From: a virus | Taxonomy: Duplodnaviria > Heunggongvirae > Uroviricota > Caudoviricetes | Virus record (IMG/VR): IMGVR_UViG_2681813205_000003 | Reading direction: 5' to 3' (one strand) | DNA length: 7,329 nt | In this document: positions 553 to 7,329 of the stretch, in pieces | Numbering within the stretch: the stretch's first letter is position 1 | Layout: each line of letters begins with the position of its first letter | Made by a program: the position numbers and the translations under genes | The notes under the pieces: model-generated | The model's database searches: none | What the model was told of the DNA's origin: nothing | Seen by the model: only the letters and a program-made list of their open reading frames with translations

Positions 553-1353
553 TTAACCGCGCTTCGCCTTCTGCGTCGCGGTGGTTTTTCGTGTTGCAGG
601 CTTCCGCGTTGTCTTTTTACTTTTGCTGCTTTCGTCCTGCGCCTGCTGTGCGCTGGCGTCTTCTGATGCGCCTGCGGAATCGGCTTTTTTCAGGGCGCGG
701 GAAAGGGTTGCAATCTCGCGTTTCACACCTGCGTTCGGGTTCAGGTGCATTGCTTCGCGCAGCAGCTTCAGTGACAGGGCCATGCTGTCCGCATCACTCA
801 GACCACGACGGGCAAAGGCGCACGCCTTGCATAATTTGGCGCGCACTTCGTCCGGCATGTCCTGGTTGGCGACAATTTCCCAAAGTGTGTCCAGTGGTTC
901 GATAAAGGCGGATAAATCCGCGTCGGCATCCGTCCCGGCCTGCGTCAGTACCGGGTTGCAGATTTCTTCGGTCAGTACCGTGGCTGCAGTACGTCCAAAG
1001 TTATCCGGCATGATGAGGTTGTGACGGACCACATATGCACCAATACGCAGCGCCAGCGGAAGATCGCCGCAGTCAATCGCCCACACCATCAGCGTGGCAA
1101 TCACTTCATCCTGCTGCCCGCCGTCAGCCTCCAGCGTTCCCTCAATCCAGCCGGAAAAGTCCGGCAATAACTCTTTTTTGATGGCGGCTTTCGCGCTTCT
1201 GGCCTGTACGCCCTTAAGCCGGGCCTGTGCCAGACGCAGACGATACAGCACCTCTTCATGCGCGGTACGCGCGGCGTGGTCCACGCCTTCATTCGCCCGG
1301 CCTGCGCGCTGTGCCATCACGTTCTGCCAGTGTTGCTGTGCAGGAGTAATCAT
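553..1353 (-). CDS. M: Terminase small (endonuclease) subunit, P2 gpM-like
   Basis: 266-aa ORF from ATG at 1353 to TAA at 553-555 (complement), with GGAGAG upstream. The translation (MITPAQQHWQNVMAQRAG...EVLYRLRLAQARLKGV...IATLMVWAIDCGDLPLALRIGAYVVRHNLIMPDNFGRTAATVLTEE...) fits the P2 gpM family as I recall it, and it sits between N and L as in P2. It ends in a low-complexity basic tail (KSKKTTRKPATRKTTATQKAKRG). Confidence 0.85.
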   Translation of the reverse strand: MITPAQQHWQNVMAQRAGRANEGVDHAARTAHEEVLYRLRLAQARLKGVQARSAKAAIKKELLPDFSGWIEGTLEADGGQQDEVIATLMVWAIDCGDLPLALRIGAYVVRHNLIMPDNFGRTAATVLTEEICNPVLTQAGTDADADLSAFIEPLDTLWEIVANQDMPDEVRAKLCKACAFARRGLSDADSMALSLKLLREAMHLNPNAGVKREIATLSRALKKADSAGASEDASAQQAQDESSKSKKTTRKPATRKTTATQKAKRG

Positions 1354-1398: not shown

Positions 1399-2451
1399 TT
1401 AGCTGTCGGCGAACTTCAGGCCAGTGACCATCGCGCACTTGCCATAGTCTTCAACGACATAAGCGTCATTGATGGACTGGTAGGTGGCGATGCGGTTGTA
1501 TTCCGGCTCGTCTTTCATCAGGCGACGCATTGTTCCTTTCTGCCAGTAAATTGACAGGTTGTTGAACGAGGTGATCAGCATCGTTGCATCCGGGAAGAAC
1601 GGCGCAAGGAATACATCCAGCCCGCCAATGGCGCGCGATGACAGGATGAGCTGTCCGGCAAGTAATTCCGCATTGGGATTCTGGCCGCTGATGCTGTTCA
1701 GCACGGGCAGACGCAGCGAGTTAAACAGGTTGCGCCCCATAATCACCACGAGGTCGTCAGCTTCCTTGTGCCATTCATCCAGCAGGGATGAGCGCGCGTC
1801 CTGTACCAGTGCATCAGCGTTCGCATACTTACCCGCGTGCGCCACGGTGTTGTCCATGTTGCGGGAGGTCAGCGTTACATCATTCATAACGCGCTCGCTG
1901 GCGTCGGTTCTGATGTGCTCCAGCCATCCCACGTTAACGTCCTGAAGCAGCTTGTTAGTGCTGAAGTTGGACTCATCTGCGTGAGACGTGCCGTTGAAAC
2001 CGATCATGATGCGGTCAAGCGCCACCTGCCGGGCAATCTGTGTGCTGACGCGGGACTGAAAATCAGGGTGTGCCGCCCAGGCATCAAGCTGCGGATACGA
2101 AATAAACGTGTCGTAGTTCACCTGTTCGCACTGGTATTTGCGGTTTTTCAGATCAACCACGTTATTCGGGTTACGGCGTTTTGTGCCGTCATAACTGGTA
2201 TTCGTGCGCGCAATCGGCCCGGTGGTGTCCAGGAGGATTTTTTCGCCTTTCTGGTCAGTCACACCGAACACGTTAATTTTTTTTGTAAATTCAGTGCTCT
2301 CCTTTACTGCGTTTTCAAAACGCTGCTGCACCGAGGGTTCTACGGTAAATCGCGATACCAGTGCAGATACCGGGATATTGTTAAGCGACGCCTGCTGCGC
2401 CATATAGCAACCCAGCTTGTTGCGGGTAATATCTGACATCACCAGATTCAT
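1399..2451 (-). CDS. N: Major capsid protein, P2 gpN-like
   Basis: 350-aa ORF. The ATG at 2451 is preceded by AAGGAG with 10-nt spacing (aaaggagcaaattttttATG on the reverse strand). The translation (…FTVEPSVQQRFENAVKESTEFTKKINVFGVTDQKGEKILLDTTGPIARTNTS…) matches my recollection of the P2-family major capsid protein, and it lies directly downstream of O. Confidence 0.9.
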   Translation of the reverse strand: MNLVMSDITRNKLGCYMAQQASLNNIPVSALVSRFTVEPSVQQRFENAVKESTEFTKKINVFGVTDQKGEKILLDTTGPIARTNTSYDGTKRRNPNNVVDLKNRKYQCEQVNYDTFISYPQLDAWAAHPDFQSRVSTQIARQVALDRIMIGFNGTSHADESNFSTNKLLQDVNVGWLEHIRTDASERVMNDVTLTSRNMDNTVAHAGKYANADALVQDARSSLLDEWHKEADDLVVIMGRNLFNSLRLPVLNSISGQNPNAELLAGQLILSSRAIGGLDVFLAPFFPDATMLITSFNNLSIYWQKGTMRRLMKDEPEYNRIATYQSINDAYVVEDYGKCAMVTGLKFADS

Positions 2452-2474: not shown

Positions 2475-3311
2475 TCAGAAGTCAGCCAGCTGGTCGGAGG
2501 CTGCGCCCGTTGCGGTGAACCGGTTCTGCGGATCGCCGTCCTGCGTGCGCAGTTTTTCCTTCAGTGCTGTCAGCTCTGTGGTCAGTGACGTAATTTTCTG
2601 GCGGTCCTGCTGATGGCGGGTTTCCAGCACATTAAAACGGTCGATAATGTCGGCCTGTGACGTTGCGACGCCTTCCACCGCTTCCTGAATACGGGAAAAA
2701 CTGGCGTCATCCGCTTTGCGGCCACGGCCAATAATCCCCATTACGCGGTTAAACCACTGGGTGCCTTCTTCCTGGCGTTGTTCTGCCATTTCGATGATTT
2801 CAGACTCGATGGCTTCGGAGATAAGCGGCGCTTCACCCTGGACACTGTTGAACGTCATTACCGCCTGACGTTGCTGTGCCGTGAATTTCAGGCGCTCAGT
2901 GCCCAGGCTTGCCGGGGTGTCGGTCATCGCCAGCCCGACCAGATAGGCGCGCCCGTTAACGGAGAACTGCGGGTGCAGTTCGATACTGGAATAGATTTTC
3001 TTGCCGTCCGCGACAAGCTGCTTCATGCGCTCGGTCGGTTCGATTTCTGCATACAGCGCAGTACGTCCGGCCAGCGGACCTTCCGTAATGTCTTCCGTAC
3101 TCAGTGCGGTGACATCGCCCATTGCGGAAAATTCGCTTGACGGGCATGGCGAGAGATAGTGCTCAACGTTCACGCGGGCAGCGTAAACATCCGGGTTGAA
3201 GTTCTCGGCGGCTTCACGCAGATGCACCGGACTGATTTCACGGCCATCAACAGTTGATCCGGAGACAGCCACGCGAAACTTTTTGCGGGATGTCTTTTTT
3301 TCATTAGCCAT
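2475..3311 (-). CDS. O: Capsid scaffolding protein, P2 gpO-like
   Basis: ORF-track frame 2475..3344. I place the start at the internal ATG at 3311 (MANEKKTSRKKFRVAVSGSTVDGREISPVHLREAAENFNPDVYAARVNVEHY...) because it has a GAGGGG ribosome-binding site 8 nt upstream and the N-terminus then resembles my recollection of P2 gpO (MAKKVSKFFRIGVEGDTCDGRVIS...). Downstream motifs (YSSIELHPQF, YLVGLAMTDTPASLGTERLKF) fit the GPO family. Confidence 0.87.
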   Translation of the reverse strand: MANEKKTSRKKFRVAVSGSTVDGREISPVHLREAAENFNPDVYAARVNVEHYLSPCPSSEFSAMGDVTALSTEDITEGPLAGRTALYAEIEPTERMKQLVADGKKIYSSIELHPQFSVNGRAYLVGLAMTDTPASLGTERLKFTAQQRQAVMTFNSVQGEAPLISEAIESEIIEMAEQRQEEGTQWFNRVMGIIGRGRKADDASFSRIQEAVEGVATSQADIIDRFNVLETRHQQDRQKITSLTTELTALKEKLRTQDGDPQNRFTATGAASDQLADF

Positions 3312-3465
3312 AGTTTTTGCCCCTCTGACTGGTTCTTCAGTCATGATGGCAAAGCGTAACAGGCTGATACAAAGGGCTTTTGTTGTAAGAAAACGGCCAG
3401 AACAGGGGGTTAAGGAGAACAGTTTCGCGCGCGGGTAATCTTCCTGTAATTACTCAGGGGGAGCA
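3312..3465. promoter_or_regulatory. Divergent intergenic control region between O (minus) and P (plus); expected site of the two late promoters
   Basis: 154-bp non-coding gap between divergently transcribed operons, as at the P2 P/O junction. It contains a partial dyad TGTTGT...AGAACA (3381-3404), a small ACAAA/TTTGT inverted repeat (3369-3386), a CGCGCGCG palindrome (3426-3433) and a TGTAAT -10-like hexamer (3445-3450). No exact TGT-N12-ACA activator dyad and no clean sigma70 -35/-10 pair found by eye. Confidence 0.5.
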
Positions 3466-5217
3466 ATGATTCAGGACGCTTTTGTGCGCCAGCGTGCGCG
3501 GCAACTTTACTGGCAGGGTTATCCGCCCGCAGAAATATCACGTCTGATGGGAATAAACCCGAACACGATTTATGCGTGGAAAAAACGCGACCAGTGGGAT
3601 GAAACGCCACCCGTGCAGCGTGTCACGCAGTCCATCGATGCGCGCCTCATCCAGCTTACTGAAAAACAGAATAAAACAGGCGGTGACTTTAAGGAAATAG
3701 ACCTGCTGACCCGGCAGCTTAAAAAACTGCATGATGGCCAGCCGGATGCGACGGCCACAGGAAAGAAAGGCCGGGCGAAAAAACTCAAAAATCATTTCAC
3801 GCCGGAACAGATTGCCGCACTGCGGGAAAAAATCATCAGCAGGCTGGAGTGGCATCAGCGGGGCTGGTTTGACTCCCTGACCCTTTGCAGGGAAGCCGGG
3901 ATACGTAACAGGATGATCCTGAAATCCCGACAGATTGGGGCGACCTGGTATTTTGCACAGGAAGCACTGCTGATGGCGCTGCGTGACGATGTGGCGCAAC
4001 CTTACCAGCGTAACCAGATTTTTTTGTCTGCGTCGCGTCGTCAGGCGTTCCAGTTTAAAAGCATTATTCAGAAGGCCGCGGCTGAAGTTGATGTGGAGCT
4101 GAAAGGGGGCGATAAAATCATCCTCTCCAACGGCGCAGAGCTGCATTTTCTCGGCACTTCTGCTGCGTCGGCACAGTCCTATACGGGCAATTTTTATTTT
4201 GATGAATTTTTCTGGGTCAGTCGCTTTGCTGAACTGCGCAAGGTGGCTGGCGCTATGGCAACCCTCAGCGGACTGCGGCGCACCTACTTCTCCACGCCAT
4301 CCACCGAAACGCACGAGGCATACGCCTACTGGAATGGCGACCGCTGGAACGAGAAAAAGGCCTCGCATAAACGCCAGCGTTTTTCTGTGGACTGGAAAAC
4401 GCTGCATAACGGGCTTATCTGCCCTGACCGGACGTGGCGGCAAATTGTCACGCTGGAAGATGTGGTTAATCACGGCTGGAAACACACCGATATCGACGAA
4501 ATTCGTGATGAAAACACCGAAGACGAGTTCCTCAATCTCTATATGTGTGAGTTTGTCCGCGAAGGGGAATCGGCATTTAACCTGAATATCCTGATTGGCT
4601 GCGGTGTTGACGGATACGACGACTGGAAAGACTGGAAACCTTTTGCTCCCCGACCGATGGGGAATCGTCCGGTATGGATTGGGTATGACGCAAACGGCAG
4701 TAGTGGCAACGGCGACAGCGGCGCTGTGTCCGTTGTGGTTCCTCCGGCTGTTCCTGGTGGCCGTTTTCGAACGGTGGAGACTCGACGCGTTCAGGGGCTG
4801 GAGTTTGAAGAGCAGGCCAGAGTCATTGAAGAGTTCACGTATCGCTACAACGTGGAACACATCGGCATTGATGTGACGGGCGGGAACGGGGAGGCTGTTT
4901 ATCAGATAGTGAAGCGGTTTTTCCCTGCTGCTATTCCGTACACCTTCACGCTGTCATCAAAACGGTCGCTGGTACTGAAAATGCTGCAAATAATGCGTGC
5001 CGGGCGGTGGGAATACGATCGCGCCGAACGCGAGCTGGTCGCGGCCTTTAACGCCGTGCGTAAGGTGAAAACACCGGGCGGCTTTATCACTTACGAAACG
5101 GACCGAGCGAGGGGGATCAGCCACGGCGACCTTGCGTGGGCAACCATGCTTGCTGTCATTAACGAACCGATTGGCGGCGAAGGAGAAAACGAGCGTTTCA
5201 CGGTTATGGAGTTCTGA
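3466..5217 (+). CDS. P: Terminase large (ATPase) subunit, P2 gpP-like
   Basis: 583-aa ORF with a G-rich ribosome-binding site (cagggggagcaATG). N-terminal HTH-like segment (YPPAEISRLMGINPNTIYAWKKR), deviant Walker A-like KSRQIGATWYFAQ and Walker B-like FYFDEFFW, all typical of P2-type terminase ATPase subunits as I recall them. Its stop overlaps the start of the portal gene. Confidence 0.9.
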   Translation: MIQDAFVRQRARQLYWQGYPPAEISRLMGINPNTIYAWKKRDQWDETPPVQRVTQSIDARLIQLTEKQNKTGGDFKEIDLLTRQLKKLHDGQPDATATGKKGRAKKLKNHFTPEQIAALREKIISRLEWHQRGWFDSLTLCREAGIRNRMILKSRQIGATWYFAQEALLMALRDDVAQPYQRNQIFLSASRRQAFQFKSIIQKAAAEVDVELKGGDKIILSNGAELHFLGTSAASAQSYTGNFYFDEFFWVSRFAELRKVAGAMATLSGLRRTYFSTPSTETHEAYAYWNGDRWNEKKASHKRQRFSVDWKTLHNGLICPDRTWRQIVTLEDVVNHGWKHTDIDEIRDENTEDEFLNLYMCEFVREGESAFNLNILIGCGVDGYDDWKDWKPFAPRPMGNRPVWIGYDANGSSGNGDSGAVSVVVPPAVPGGRFRTVETRRVQGLEFEEQARVIEEFTYRYNVEHIGIDVTGGNGEAVYQIVKRFFPAAIPYTFTLSSKRSLVLKMLQIMRAGRWEYDRAERELVAAFNAVRKVKTPGGFITYETDRARGISHGDLAWATMLAVINEPIGGEGENERFTVMEF

Positions 5218-6263
5218 TGAGCAGAAAAAATAAAAAAGTGCGCATGAGTTCACGCATTGATCTCGCTGATGCGCTCAGGAAAGAATCATCGCTCAGTGCA
5301 TTCACATTTGATGGTCCTTATCGCCTGACCGGGCATGACCTGCTGGATAATATGTACTGTGCTGATAACGGGCGGTGGTATGAAACCCCGGTGGACTGGT
5401 ACGGTCTGGCAAGAGCTGCCCGGCAAACGTCCTGGCATCAGTCTGCGCTTTACTTTAAGCGCAATGTATTACTCGGTTGCTACATCCCGCACCCGTTGCT
5501 TTCCCGGCAGGATTTCTCGGCGCTGGCGCTGGACTGGTTTGTGTTCGGTAACGCATTCCTTGAGCTTCGAAGCAATATGCTCGGCGAACCGCTTAAATTA
5601 CGGCACGCCCTGGCGAAATACATGCGACGCGGAAGCGATCTTGAATCATGGTGGTATGTGCAGGATGGCAAGGGCGCGTTCCAGTTTCGCCCTGGCAAAG
5701 TGTGCCACCTGATGAATCCGGACATTAACCAGGAAATCTACGGCATGCCGGAATATCTTGGCGCATTACTCTCGGCCAGCCTGTCTCATTCGGCGGACAT
5801 GTTCAGAAAACTGTACTACGACAACGGATCCCACGCCGGGTGCATCATCTACATCGGTGCAGCGCAGGTAAACCGCGAAAGCATGGACTCCCTGAAGGAA
5901 ACGCTACAGGGGGCACGTGGTGGTGGTGCGTTTAAAAACGTGCTCATTCATGCGCCCAACGGGGGCAAAGAGGGGGTGCAAATTTTGCCGTTCCAGCAGA
6001 TCACCGCAAAGGATGAGTTCATGAATGTTAAGGCGGCATCCCGTGATGATGTGCTGGCTTCGCACCGCGTTCCGCCGCAACTGATGGGGGCGATGCCGGG
6101 CGAAAAAAGTGCGTTTGGTGATGTGGAGAAGGCAGCGCGGGTTTACGCAATTAACGAGCTGATGCCTGTCATGGAGGCCATGAAGCACATCAATGACTGG
6201 CTTGGTGAAGAGGTGATCCGTTTTAATTCTTATGCTCTTCTTGATGAAAAAACAGCCCCGTGA
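5217..6263 (+). CDS. Q: Portal protein (capsid portal vertex), P2 gpQ-like
   Basis: 348-aa ORF starting at the ATG in the TGATG overlap with the P stop (5215-5219). The translation fits my recollection of P2 gpQ / PBSX-type portal proteins, and P followed by Q matches P2 order. It ends at TGA 6261-6263, inside the loop of the downstream terminator hairpin. Confidence 0.9.
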   Translation: MSRKNKKVRMSSRIDLADALRKESSLSAFTFDGPYRLTGHDLLDNMYCADNGRWYETPVDWYGLARAARQTSWHQSALYFKRNVLLGCYIPHPLLSRQDFSALALDWFVFGNAFLELRSNMLGEPLKLRHALAKYMRRGSDLESWWYVQDGKGAFQFRPGKVCHLMNPDINQEIYGMPEYLGALLSASLSHSADMFRKLYYDNGSHAGCIIYIGAAQVNRESMDSLKETLQGARGGGAFKNVLIHAPNGGKEGVQILPFQQITAKDEFMNVKAASRDDVLASHRVPPQLMGAMPGEKSAFGDVEKAARVYAINELMPVMEAMKHINDWLGEEVIRFNSYALLDEKTAP

Positions 6264-6280
6264 TGGGGCTGTCCTTTTTA
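6245..6280. terminator. Bidirectional intrinsic terminator shared by the convergent Q gene and the 6278..6802 ORF
   Basis: Stem acagcccc (6252-6259) / ggggctgt (6265-6272), 8 bp, with a 5-nt loop gtgat. It is followed on plus by ccttttta (T5) and preceded on plus by gaaaaaa (6245-6251), which gives a U-run after the same hairpin on the minus strand. The stop codons of both convergent genes abut or overlap the structure. Confidence 0.7.
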
Positions 6281-6802
6281 CCAGAGTTGAACCATTTTCT
6301 GGGTGCCGTCAGGCTTGAGATTATCAATTTCAGAGAGAACGTAATATTGGATGGCTTCACAAACGGTGGTGTATGGTGAATTACCTTCTTTAAGTGGCAC
6401 GATATTATTATTAACGCGAACCTGTATTTCATCGTTATACATTGCGATCGAAAGAGGAGTATGCACGAACGCGACTTCGCCAGGTGTGTCGTCAACCACT
6501 GTCTCAATGCTGAAAATCAGTTTTCGCTCATCATTGCCGCCCCTTGCTTTGGGGGTGGCGGCAGGAATCTGAGATAAAGGCATTCTGCGAAACCCTTCAG
6601 TTGTTTCCAGTCCGCATGAAACGTAATGCTGGCGATTACCGTCGCTATCCGTCCATGTCTGTGATGGCAGCTCCAGAGAGATTTCATAAGCATCAACAAT
6701 TCCCTGGGCAAGGTGTACAAGCGGGGTCAGATCTTCATTGCGGCGAAAACTTTCCTTTACCTGCTCTCGTTTTTCTCGTAACTGCTTGTAATTAATGACC
6801 AT
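6278..6802 (-). CDS. Hypothetical protein of unknown function (174 aa); candidate accessory/cargo gene of the prophage
   Basis: Minus-strand ORF. I favour the ATG at 6802 (MVINYKQLREKREQVKESFRRNEDLTPLVH...) because of a strong GGAGG 7 nt upstream (aatggaggctgttttATG); the ORF-track start at 6841 is a GTG. It ends at TAA (complement of 6278-6280) inside the bidirectional terminator. I recognise no family and see no Walker, HEPN or nuclease motif. Hand counts of 60-nt blocks give about 35-52% GC here versus about 55-65% in the structural genes. Confidence 0.6.
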   Translation of the reverse strand: MVINYKQLREKREQVKESFRRNEDLTPLVHLAQGIVDAYEISLELPSQTWTDSDGNRQHYVSCGLETTEGFRRMPLSQIPAATPKARGGNDERKLIFSIETVVDDTPGEVAFVHTPLSIAMYNDEIQVRVNNNIVPLKEGNSPYTTVCEAIQYYVLSEIDNLKPDGTQKMVQLW

Positions 6803-6904
6803 AAAACAGCCTCCATTGATTTCTTTGCTCGTATTTTGCACTTATGAAGTGTGGTCGGCAAGGTGCTGCATCACTGACGCGCTTCGCTTGTCTGCTGCTT
6901 CGCC

Positions 6905-6927
6905 GGGGCATAAAAAATTTATGCCCC
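6905..6927. repeat. Perfect 10-bp-arm inverted repeat with 3-bp spacer (GGGGCATAAA-aaa-TTTATGCCCC)
   Basis: ggggcataaaaaatttatgcccc at 6905-6927 is exactly self-complementary. It lies about 100 bp upstream of the 6802 start codon (in minus-strand sense) and 18 nt downstream of a possible 42-codon small ORF. No T-run follows on either strand, so it is more likely a protein-binding palindrome or RNA hairpin than a canonical terminator. Confidence 0.5.
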
Positions 6928-7207
6928 GACTCTCCAGCTCCTGTATCAGTCAGATAATTTCACGACGCCTTCCAGCTTATTGCCATCATCGGCGGTCAAG
7001 CTCTTACGCCATCCCATCGCGCTGACTGCATGTTCCCGCCGCCCCAGTGCGATTTTGACGGCCTTACCTTTCATCCCATCAAATCAGAACCCCTTACGTC
7101 TTTTTCACGCTCAGCGTGAGCGATACAGCCATTCTGTTGTGTCGCTGCGACATCGTTCAGGGAGTGCTATTTACCCCCTGAAACGCGGGCTGTTCCCCCG
7201 TCACCTG

Positions 7208-7231
7208 CGCGCAGAAAAAGCGCGTTTTTTT
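7208..7231 (+). terminator. Weak candidate plus-strand intrinsic terminator (5-bp GC stem, 7-nt loop, T7 run)
   Basis: cgcgc (7208-7212) / gcgcg (7220-7224) with loop agaaaaa, followed by ttttttt (7225-7231). The stem is short, and no plus-strand gene is evident upstream, so function is uncertain. Confidence 0.3.
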
Positions 7232-7239
7232 GTGCACGC

Positions 7240-7258
7240 ACGGATCCTTGACGGATCC
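7240..7258. repeat. Tandem direct repeat ACGGATCC x2 at 11-bp spacing, each containing the GGATCC palindrome
   Basis: acggatcc at 7240-7247 and 7251-7258, separated by ttg. The one-helical-turn phasing suggests a paired protein-binding site. Confidence 0.45.
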
Positions 7259-7301
7259 AGCCGCAACGCGGGCCGGAAGGGCAAAAAGTCGTTCAAAAAA
7301 A

Positions 7302-7328
7302 TTGTGCAAATTTGTGCACTATTGTGCA
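7302..7328. repeat. Three phased direct repeats TTGTGCA at 10-bp spacing (iteron/operator-like); array may continue beyond the window
   Basis: ttgtgca at 7302-7308, 7312-7318 and 7322-7328. A fourth TGTGCA lies at 7231-7236, immediately after the T-run. The window ends inside the array. Confidence 0.5.
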
Positions 7329-7329
7329 T

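Follow-up and report, generated by a model that had tools for sequence, protein, structure and literature searches.

The perfect palindrome close to the right-hand end of the DNA analysed here (7,329 nucleotides of a viral record, hereafter called the window) is a piece of the backbone of P88-like phages, lying where the late P-Q operon meets the opposing early/accessory region. Judged by its sequence and by that of its homologues, it most likely works as an RNA stem-loop rather than as a protein operator. Its precise role can be put forward with a confidence only slightly above even: the palindrome would form a 3′-end stem-loop at the point where the transcription units converge, with termination of transcription by Rho and protection of the resulting 3′ end by the stem.

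The window comes from a P88 (Xuanwuvirus)-type prophage of the P2 family, of which it covers the head-gene end; its nearest phage records are vB_EcoM-569R5, 705R2, PhiR44_2 and P88. Its genes and the elements discussed below are listed in Table 1. Beyond the cargo gene, toward the cos side, a non-coding stretch of about 530 bp follows which contains the palindrome. The latter is the core of a conserved module of about 65 bp that normally marks the 3′ end of the P-Q operon, after the portal gene.

Table 1. Coordinates of genes and sequence elements in the window
Feature	Position	Strand	Basis or remark
Small terminase	553-1353	-	Pfam
P2-type major capsid	1399-2451	-	Pfam
gpO scaffold	2475-3344	-	Pfam
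Large terminase	3466-5217	+	Pfam
Portal (gpQ homologue), final gene of the late P-Q operon	5217-6263	+	Pfam
Cassette absent from P88, parting portal from module	6227-6868		Comparison with P88
Canonical bidirectional intrinsic terminator, ACAGCCCCGTGATGGGGCTGT	6252-6272		T-runs on both strands
Cargo gene, 174 aa	6278-6802	-	phrog_5091 match (unknown function)
Shine-Dalgarno sequence of the cargo gene, GGAGG	6814-6810	-	By eye
Candidate sigma-70 promoter, TTGCCG (6861-6856)-17-CAAAAT (6838-6833)	6833-6861	-	By eye
Conserved module, CTGACGCGCTTCGCTTGTCTGCTGCTTCGCC-(hairpin)-ACTCTCCAGC	6874-6938		Homology to other contexts ends at its edges
TGA, portal stop in the cargo-less arrangement, a relic here	6875-6877	+	612 bp past the present portal stop
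27-nt A-free, pyrimidine-rich tract between relic stop and stem	6878-6904	+	Sequence
Outer stem GCTG with partner CAGC	6894-6897 with 6935-6938		Predicted fold
Perfect inverted repeat CGGGGCATAAA-AAA-TTTATGCCCCG (hairpin core)	6904-6928	both	11-bp arms
C-rich, G-poor stretch, candidate rut region	6929-7128	+	C/G 1.94
Small ORF, 42 aa	6946-7074	-	On the far side of the palindrome from the cargo gene

Sequence, fold and covariation of the palindrome

The 23-bp palindrome of the preliminary description, GGGGCATAAAAAATTTATGCCCC, is found exactly at 6905-6927, and the true repeat is one pair longer than had been counted, with arms at 6904-6914 and 6918-6928 around a 3-nt centre. On the minus strand the addition of a U•G and a G-C pair gives a 13-pair stem (6902-6930); a symmetric internal loop follows below it and is closed off by the outer GCUG/CAGC helix. 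The 66-nt segment is predicted to fold with −22.2 kcal/mol (z −3.5) as plus-strand RNA and with −29.3 kcal/mol (z −5.6) as minus-strand RNA. When the window was shuffled 300 times with its dinucleotides preserved, 9 shuffles contained a perfect repeat whose arms reached 11 bp or more and whose spacer was no longer than 10 bp, which makes chance alone an unlikely, though possible, origin of the palindrome. We nevertheless accept it as real, as had been claimed from the sequence, because conservation and covariation settle the matter.

No U-tract, defined as at least five U in the eight nucleotides immediately after the stem, is present on either strand. The tails read GACUCUCC (plus) and GCGAAGCA (minus), and a terminator scan of the window returned three other terminator-like sites without the palindrome among them. 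The preliminary description was thus right on this point, and the palindrome is probably not a classical intrinsic terminator. It does correspond to a GC-rich stem-loop downstream of a transcription unit, with 11-13 bp and a GGGGC/GCCCC clamp. An Rfam covariance-model search of 6000-7329 gave nothing over 6874-6938, even at E values up to 5; at this permissive threshold just two chance-level matches were obtained, both elsewhere.

The module that contains the hairpin runs from CTGA to CCAGC. In six different contexts homology begins and ends at identical module edges, and this confinement of similarity in every context marks the module out as a unit between stretches of variable DNA. Within it, the A-free tract contains a direct repeat of GCTTCGC (6881-6887 and 6897-6903), and the 27-nt flank as a whole is retained even in the copies found in integrative conjugative elements (ICEs) and in Erwinia. 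Conservation of this flank exceeds the needs of a simple protective hairpin, which is a point against the 3′-end reading.

In a flank-anchored scan the hairpin was invariant in 121 of 122 IMG/VR loci, the one variant having a plus-strand G•U pair, and IMG/VR searches with patterns that barred the usual base at the sixth and seventh stem positions produced no matches. Close relatives are so nearly identical that they carry no information on covariation. Informative changes come from more distant copies. Locus L125 reads GGGGCAAAAA-GTA-TTTTTGCCCC, a T:A to A:T exchange combined with a new loop, and in L183 the loop is one base shorter and the flanks differ by three substitutions, around an unchanged stem. 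The ICE copies, GCAACATAAA/TTTATGT(C)GC, show a G-C to A-U and a G-C to C-G change; their flanks pair too, so that the whole interval becomes a 21-bp helix, which as minus-strand RNA reaches −42 kcal/mol (z −7.4). The Erwinia homologue (L163) retains the same GCATAA/TTATGC core; its stem has 15 pairs and its loop 5 nt. Across the homologues the loop measures 2, 3 or 5 nt.

In alignments of seven sequences, both sides have changed in 6 of 21 pairs, and 75% (plus) and 81.5% (minus) of the cells are paired, compared to 31-51% in slid controls in which the partner was shifted by 1-3 columns. For paired cells, double changes or covariation, no more than 4 of 500 shuffles attained the level seen in the alignments; as only seven related sequences are involved, the covariation counts as support and not as proof. 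Taken together, the variable centre and the paired changes argue for a hairpin and against a dimer operator with fixed spacing. The RNA hairpin that had been offered as one of two possibilities therefore fits the compensatory changes, but the control of the cargo gene that was attached to it finds no support.

Genomic contexts of the module and its displacement in the window

A 71-bp element comprising the palindrome occurs in 1183 of 5426 complete E. coli genomes, with a median of one place per carrier genome; P88-like prophages are present in about one fifth of such genomes. The arrangement with the cargo gene accounts for 397 genomes, and in most of the remaining carriers the element directly adjoins the portal end. 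The same picture emerges from the 119 IMG/VR loci in which element and portal end are both present: 107 have the direct arrangement and 12 that of the window. In P88 and in these 107 loci the stem starts 26 nt past the portal stop. The P88 portal gene ends with ...ACATCCTGA, followed by CGCGCTTCGCTTGTCTGCTGCTTCGCC-GGGGCATAAAAAATTTATGCCCC-GACTCTCCAGC. P88-like phages mostly share only 6869-7329 of this part of the window; the segment 6227-6868 is missing from them, and homology to P88 picks up at 6869 with CATC(A)CTGA, the remnant of a P88-type portal end.

The module is also found outside this setting. In L124 it follows a portal gene that is only 69% identical, and the TGA of the module again provides the stop codon. 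In L125 the gene that precedes it is ogr/Delta-like, and the portal of this prophage has 30% identity. The module itself is thus at least 94% identical beside late operons with portals of 99%, 69% and 30% identity, and the genes to its right differ among L124, L125, L126 and L183. A weak homologue is present behind the portal gene of an Erwinia tracheiphila prophage. At 79-84% identity the module occurs inside SPI-7-type ICEs (L181, L182 and L184) and additionally in 11 metagenome contigs of this ICE type. The ICE copies are located between two minus-strand genes, with no portal gene nearby, and adjoin replication genes (STY4528, STY4534, ssb and topoisomerase III). When the small ICE proteins encoded beside the module were compared with the phage loci by tblastn, no matches were obtained, so that co-transfer with neighbouring genes is unsupported. 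Its presence in ICEs documents that phages and conjugative elements exchange non-coding modules.

A dispersed repeat of the MITE or REP type was considered and rejected since the copies examined are all in P2-like prophages or SPI-7-type ICEs. A role as a cos or packaging site was equally rejected: the distance to cos-proximal sequences varies (a 711-bp gene intervenes in L126), and the ICE copies have no packaging context.

In the window, a cassette of about 640 bp, carried by the window and by the 397 E. coli genomes mentioned above, has been introduced by recombination, so that portal gene and module are now apart. It consists of a replaced portal 3′ end (the last ~10 codons have diverged), a canonical terminator and the cargo gene, along with a candidate promoter. 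The terminator of the cassette, in which the present portal stop (6261-6263) is embedded, now serves portal and cargo genes alike. Only 66 bp separate the cargo ATG (6802) from the end of the cassette, and the candidate promoter within this stretch agrees with the consensus at 8 of 12 positions, which is under the threshold of the promoter scan. The scan detected no promoter-like site on the minus strand upstream of this candidate, on the cos side. The cargo protein gave no matches in Pfam, PADLOC or NCBIfam; PDB matches to designed helical repeat proteins, none of them with a significant stretch, were put down to composition. The cargo gene occupies the unusual, portal-proximal side and brings its own canonical terminator together with a weak candidate promoter.

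Insertion of the cassette between portal and module makes the palindrome a displaced backbone element. Having been separated from the portal gene it is largely redundant for the portal transcript here, and the element as a whole may be functionally redundant in the window, the portal gene having a canonical terminator. At most, the palindrome would keep transcription that arrives from the cos side out of the cassette and catch portal-sense read-through, or it might be included in such cos-side transcription of the cargo gene; any effect on the cargo gene is an inference.

The preliminary description had placed the palindrome between a small ORF and the cargo gene, about 100 bp from the start of the latter. 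The distance holds (103 bp from the ATG at 6802); the small ORF shows no coding signature. In the 42-aa frame the variable sites are spread 23/17/16 over the three codon positions, the ratio of synonymous to nonsynonymous changes is 18:44, the same as in the off-frames, and the frame is broken in 16 of 95 unique relatives and starts mostly with GTG. Similarly, a minus-strand ATG within the 3′ arm of the palindrome does not open a conserved ORF, the ICE copy running into a stop after 3 codons.

Transcription at the end of the P-Q operon

The position of the palindrome has counterparts in related phages. At a distance of 5 nt behind gene Q, the P2 record lists tQ, a "putative rho-independent terminator for P operon", and in the 186 record tW is annotated after the portal gene. 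Both tQ (GCCGCCTGCGGGCGGC-TTTTTT) and tW are canonical hairpins with T-runs and lie 5-9 nt after the portal genes. We compared the portal loci of P2, 186 and P88 with 47 others taken from different bacterial species, and about 40 of these 50 P2-like loci have a stable hairpin (−11 to −29 kcal/mol) 5-26 nt after the stop codon. The sequences of these post-portal hairpins are unrelated and about one third are without a U-tract. In the relatives of the window the first structure behind the portal stop is the palindrome, and it can be considered the positional counterpart of tQ and tW, with the U-tract absent. It shares with them the location between portal and cos at the convergence with the early/accessory region, as well as a GC-clamped stem of comparable stability. 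In contrast, tQ and tW possess a canonical U-tract and have no sequence similarity to the window element, which in turn is characterized by an A/U-rich upper stem and the conserved 27-nt flank.

How transcription could end at a stem of this kind is suggested by the E. coli chromosome, where Rho-terminated transcripts end at stable stem-loops without following U residues (Dar and Sorek 2018, PMC6061677). Such stems protect against PNPase and RNase II, and the rut sites are found immediately downstream (PMC6061677). By analogy, RNA polymerase would read through the stem-loop of the module, Rho would load on the C-rich untranslated RNA directly downstream and end transcription, and 3′-to-5′ exonucleases would then trim the RNA back to the stable stem, which would constitute the protected 3′ end. 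As the palindrome is perfect, it might play the same role, or that of a 3′-end or processing hairpin, on minus-strand transcripts. Both a transcript end at the palindrome and the participation of Rho are what we infer from the stem, its tails and the base composition that follows.

On the plus strand this composition fits such an arrangement. Over the 200 nt downstream on the plus strand the GC skew falls to −0.37, and the matching stretch of P88 is at the 99.4th percentile of C/G for all 200-nt windows on either strand of the P88 genome. The rut-like composition is confined to the plus strand and missing from the minus strand; nor is the RNA that follows the stem on the minus strand of the ICE copies rich in C. 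However, a C-rich spacer between portal and cos is found family-wide, even behind canonical terminators (C/G of 2.25 in P2 and 2.22 in 186, with a median of 1.70), and may therefore reflect the composition of the packaging site instead of a rut site.

The likeness to the Rho-dependent 3′ ends of Dar and Sorek extends to the stable stem-loop after the gene and the missing U residues and, on the plus strand, perhaps to the C-rich, G-poor candidate rut region immediately downstream. A perfect palindrome within a discrete, horizontally shared 65-bp module is not described for the chromosomal sites. In kind the element is ordinary: it belongs to the known class of U-tract-less operon-end stem-loops, and it matches no Rfam family. 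A well-conserved member of this class for which there is compensatory evidence represents a convenient test case for Rho-type termination and 3′-end protection in the late operon of a phage.

The evidence as to which strand is the relevant one is mixed, and a perfect palindrome can serve both directions. In favour of the minus strand, mismatches of the ICE copies on the plus strand become G•U pairs on the minus strand, where the fold is 6-10 kcal/mol more stable, and this is also the strand of the genes flanking the ICE copies. The twelfth pair of the phage form behaves likewise, being A•C on the plus and U•G on the minus strand. In favour of the plus strand, the interior of the post-portal hairpins contains 22 G•U against 8 A•C on the portal-sense strand, a count that weighs little as strand evidence since many of those portal loci are related; moreover, some post-portal hairpins of P2-like phages are plain portal-sense terminators with U-tracts. 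When entire segments of 48 post-portal regions were folded, the minus strand was the stabler one in 34. This was rejected as a strand test because a G-rich minus strand gains G•U pairs from its composition alone.

Alternative readings of the element

According to the preliminary description, the palindrome would be an operator for a dimeric regulator or a 5′-leader hairpin controlling the cargo gene. This we consider very improbable, even though the palindrome is perfect, stands 103 bp ahead of the cargo start codon in the direction from which the gene is transcribed, and is invariably the neighbour of the cargo gene in E. coli. The association does not hold in the other direction: with 1183 genomes having the element and only 397 the cargo gene, the element is without the cargo in about two thirds of its carriers, and also in unrelated contexts such as the ogr-like gene and the ICEs. 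Centres of 2, 3 or 5 nt and a covarying stem are not expected of a site for a dimeric repressor, and there is no regulator or DNA-binding gene adjacent. A search for additional copies of the palindrome had been proposed as a check; in the P88 genome and the cargo-bearing 569R5 record, two complete or near-complete phage genomes, no other copy of the half-site was found. Finally, the sole candidate promoter found is inside the cassette, downstream of the palindrome, with none detected upstream. In this configuration, with the cargo transcript predicted to start at about 6826, the centre of the palindrome would lie near −90 and outside that transcript, although read-through from the cos side might conceivably place it in a cargo leader.

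The module might alternatively be a recombination linker or hotspot boundary, that is, a short block of homology used for swapping the variable regions on either side, with the hairpin being incidental or secondary. The near-identical copies (at least 94%) beside portals of such different identity and the presence in ICEs speak for this, as do the break of homology at the same edges in six contexts and the location in the gpA-gpQ region, a P2 defence hotspot with recombinational turnover (PMC9122126, PMC13586616). We regard it as unlikely nonetheless, since a linker has no need of a stem, while here the stem is kept by compensatory changes and even lengthened in the ICE copies. In addition, homology-driven crossovers would fall inside the 65 bp, whereas the breakpoints observed flank the module. 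A linker is in any case compatible with a 3′-end stem-loop and does not exclude it. The concept of module exchange developed for lambdoid phages holds that conserved linkers lie between the modules of mosaic temperate phages; the block in the window differs from these in carrying a covarying stem.

A broader version, in which the module is a horizontally mobile cis-element that acts at the level of DNA or ssDNA, for instance as a priming or recombination site at the edges of the cargo hotspot, seems to us rather unlikely. If true, it could explain the cassette swaps at the P2 cos-proximal hotspot. As in this hotspot (PMC9122126), one is dealing with a short non-coding block between variable segments inside gpA-gpQ; the main text of PMC9122126 and PMC13586616 makes no mention of a terminator, hairpin or palindrome. 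A particular form of this idea, a hairpin of single-stranded DNA that functions in replication or transfer, such as an ssi-like priming site on the displaced strand during rolling-circle replication, appears decidedly improbable. The module is common to a rolling-circle phage family and to ICEs, where it is near replication genes, its A-free flank with the repeated GCTTCGC is strand-asymmetric, and one strand pairs better than the other. Against this, the element lies exactly at gene ends, a location typical of transcript elements, and ordinary terminators occupy the same spot in other P2-like phages. Known ssi or primosome assembly sites are, furthermore, much longer than the window element.

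Processing by an RNase III-type enzyme, with the stem being cut in read-through RNA and thereby setting the stability of the upstream mRNA (retroregulation), would account for an RNA hairpin in a different way. The uninterrupted 21-bp helix of the ICE copies is long enough for RNase III as minus-strand RNA, no U-tract follows the stem, and the ICE copy lies between co-directional genes. The succession of an upper stem, a symmetric internal loop and a lower stem (13 + 4 pairs) may resemble the processing sites of T7. Like the RNase III hairpins of T7 early mRNA and of lambda sib, the element is an intergenic stem-loop with an internal loop and lacks a U-tract, and the ICE helix exceeds 20 bp; there is no sequence relation, and the phage form in the window is shorter. 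With 11-13 contiguous pairs the phage stem is in fact short for the enzyme. We rate this possibility, in which cleavage is putative, as improbable.

A core site for XerCD or another tyrosine recombinase was also rejected, since the junctions are all outside the 65-bp module and none is in the palindrome. Cores of the dif/cer type have 11-bp arms, a centre of 6-8 bp and a conserved XerD arm, TTATGTTAAAT. In a comparison with dif by eye, the left arm of the palindrome shares GCATAA, the right arm matches at only 5 of 11 positions and the spacing would be 5 bp.

For the reading that we favour, a 3′-end stem-loop of the phage backbone, the surroundings of the module have a practical consequence. 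The gpA-gpQ interval beside cos is described as a P2 defence hotspot subject to recombinational turnover (PMC9122126, PMC13586616), and two variable slots can be distinguished there, one between portal and module, which is taken by the cargo gene, and another between module and cos with defence or accessory genes. The palindrome separates these two slots and can hence be used to delimit cassettes; in annotation it should be treated as a landmark of the phage backbone and not as a regulator of the cargo gene.

The portal-proximal slot and its cargo

The last ~10 codons of the portal gene have diverged from those of P88 (NSYALLDEKTAP in the window versus NPYALLDTQPTS in P88), and the portal stop codon sits within a canonical bidirectional terminator. 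The cassette, the stretch absent from P88 that separates the portal gene from the conserved hairpin module, was thus not simply inserted behind the portal gene but took the place of its 3′ end. It places the cargo gene on the portal-proximal side of the module, which is the unusual side. Among complete E. coli genomes the cargo gene is present in 397 of 5426, and only in this one arrangement. The protein has no match in Pfam, PADLOC or NCBIfam; it may be an uncharacterised gene of the P2 cos-proximal hotspot between gpA and gpQ, possibly one with a role in defence. That the portal-proximal slot also takes other inserts is shown by one P2-like prophage (L125), where an ogr/Delta-like zinc-finger gene (2239-2496) lies between portal and module.

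Features of the window from the portal 3′ end into the portal-to-cos spacer
Feature	Window position	Strand	Remarks
Diverged portal end and stop codon	6227-6272		last ~10 portal codons
Cargo gene	6278-6802	-	174 aa; phrog_5091 (family of unknown function)
Direct repeat GCTTCGC	6881-6887 and 6897-6903		period 16; within A-free tract
42-aa ORF	6946-7074	-	P88 gp22, annotated as hypothetical protein
Symmetric element	7105-7119		TCACGCT-C-AGCGTGA
Terminator-like element	7207-7232	+	GCGCGCAGAAAAAGCGCG, then T7
TTGTGCA, four copies in 100 bp	7230-7328	all +	last three at 7302, 7312, 7322
Symmetric element	7242-7258		GGATCC-TTGAC-GGATCC

The module and its copies in conjugative elements

Immediately to the left of the module's stem, a 27-nt tract free of A residues contains the GCTTCGC repeat, and this tract is kept in the Erwinia copy and in those of integrative conjugative elements (ICEs). 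Copies of the phage module occur in conjugative elements of E. coli (L181, L182 and L184, SPI-7-type ICEs) and of metagenomes (L185-L195), between small genes of the ead/Ea22-like region and the STY4528 replication gene. These copies still contain CTGA, left over from the stop codon of the portal gene, and have a stem lengthened to 21 pairs; their occurrence suggests that the non-coding module has moved from phage to ICE. A module identical to that of the window, together with a portal gene 98% identical to the window's, was also found on a contig labelled Vagococcus sp. WN89Y (L152), which suggests enterobacterial contamination of that assembly.

The portal-to-cos spacer

Throughout the P2 family the portal-sense strand of this spacer is strongly C-rich. 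Downstream of the portal stop the C/G ratio has a median of 1.70 in 31 loci (from L128-L176, L179 and L180) and reaches 2.25 in P2 and 2.22 in 186; inside the portal gene it is 0.88. The 42-aa ORF is probably not a gene: no codon-position bias was seen, the ratio of synonymous to non-synonymous changes is the same in its frame as in the off-frames, the start codon is mostly GTG, and the frame is broken in 16 of 95 unique relatives.

Besides further small symmetric elements, the spacer contains the TTGTGCA array, whose last three copies are phased at 10 bp. The array lies near the putative cos region, on the side of the ParM/ParR genes, and may be a protein-binding array, perhaps for terminase or for partition; the linear record of P88_4B11 begins at about window position 7283. 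P88 encodes partition proteins of the ParM/ParR type (gp17-gp18), and P88-like phages may persist as phage-plasmids, P88-like sequences being present in PLSDB as small non-mobilizable 'plasmids' (NZ_CP148288.1, 34.5 kb; NZ_CP049283.1, 26.8 kb).
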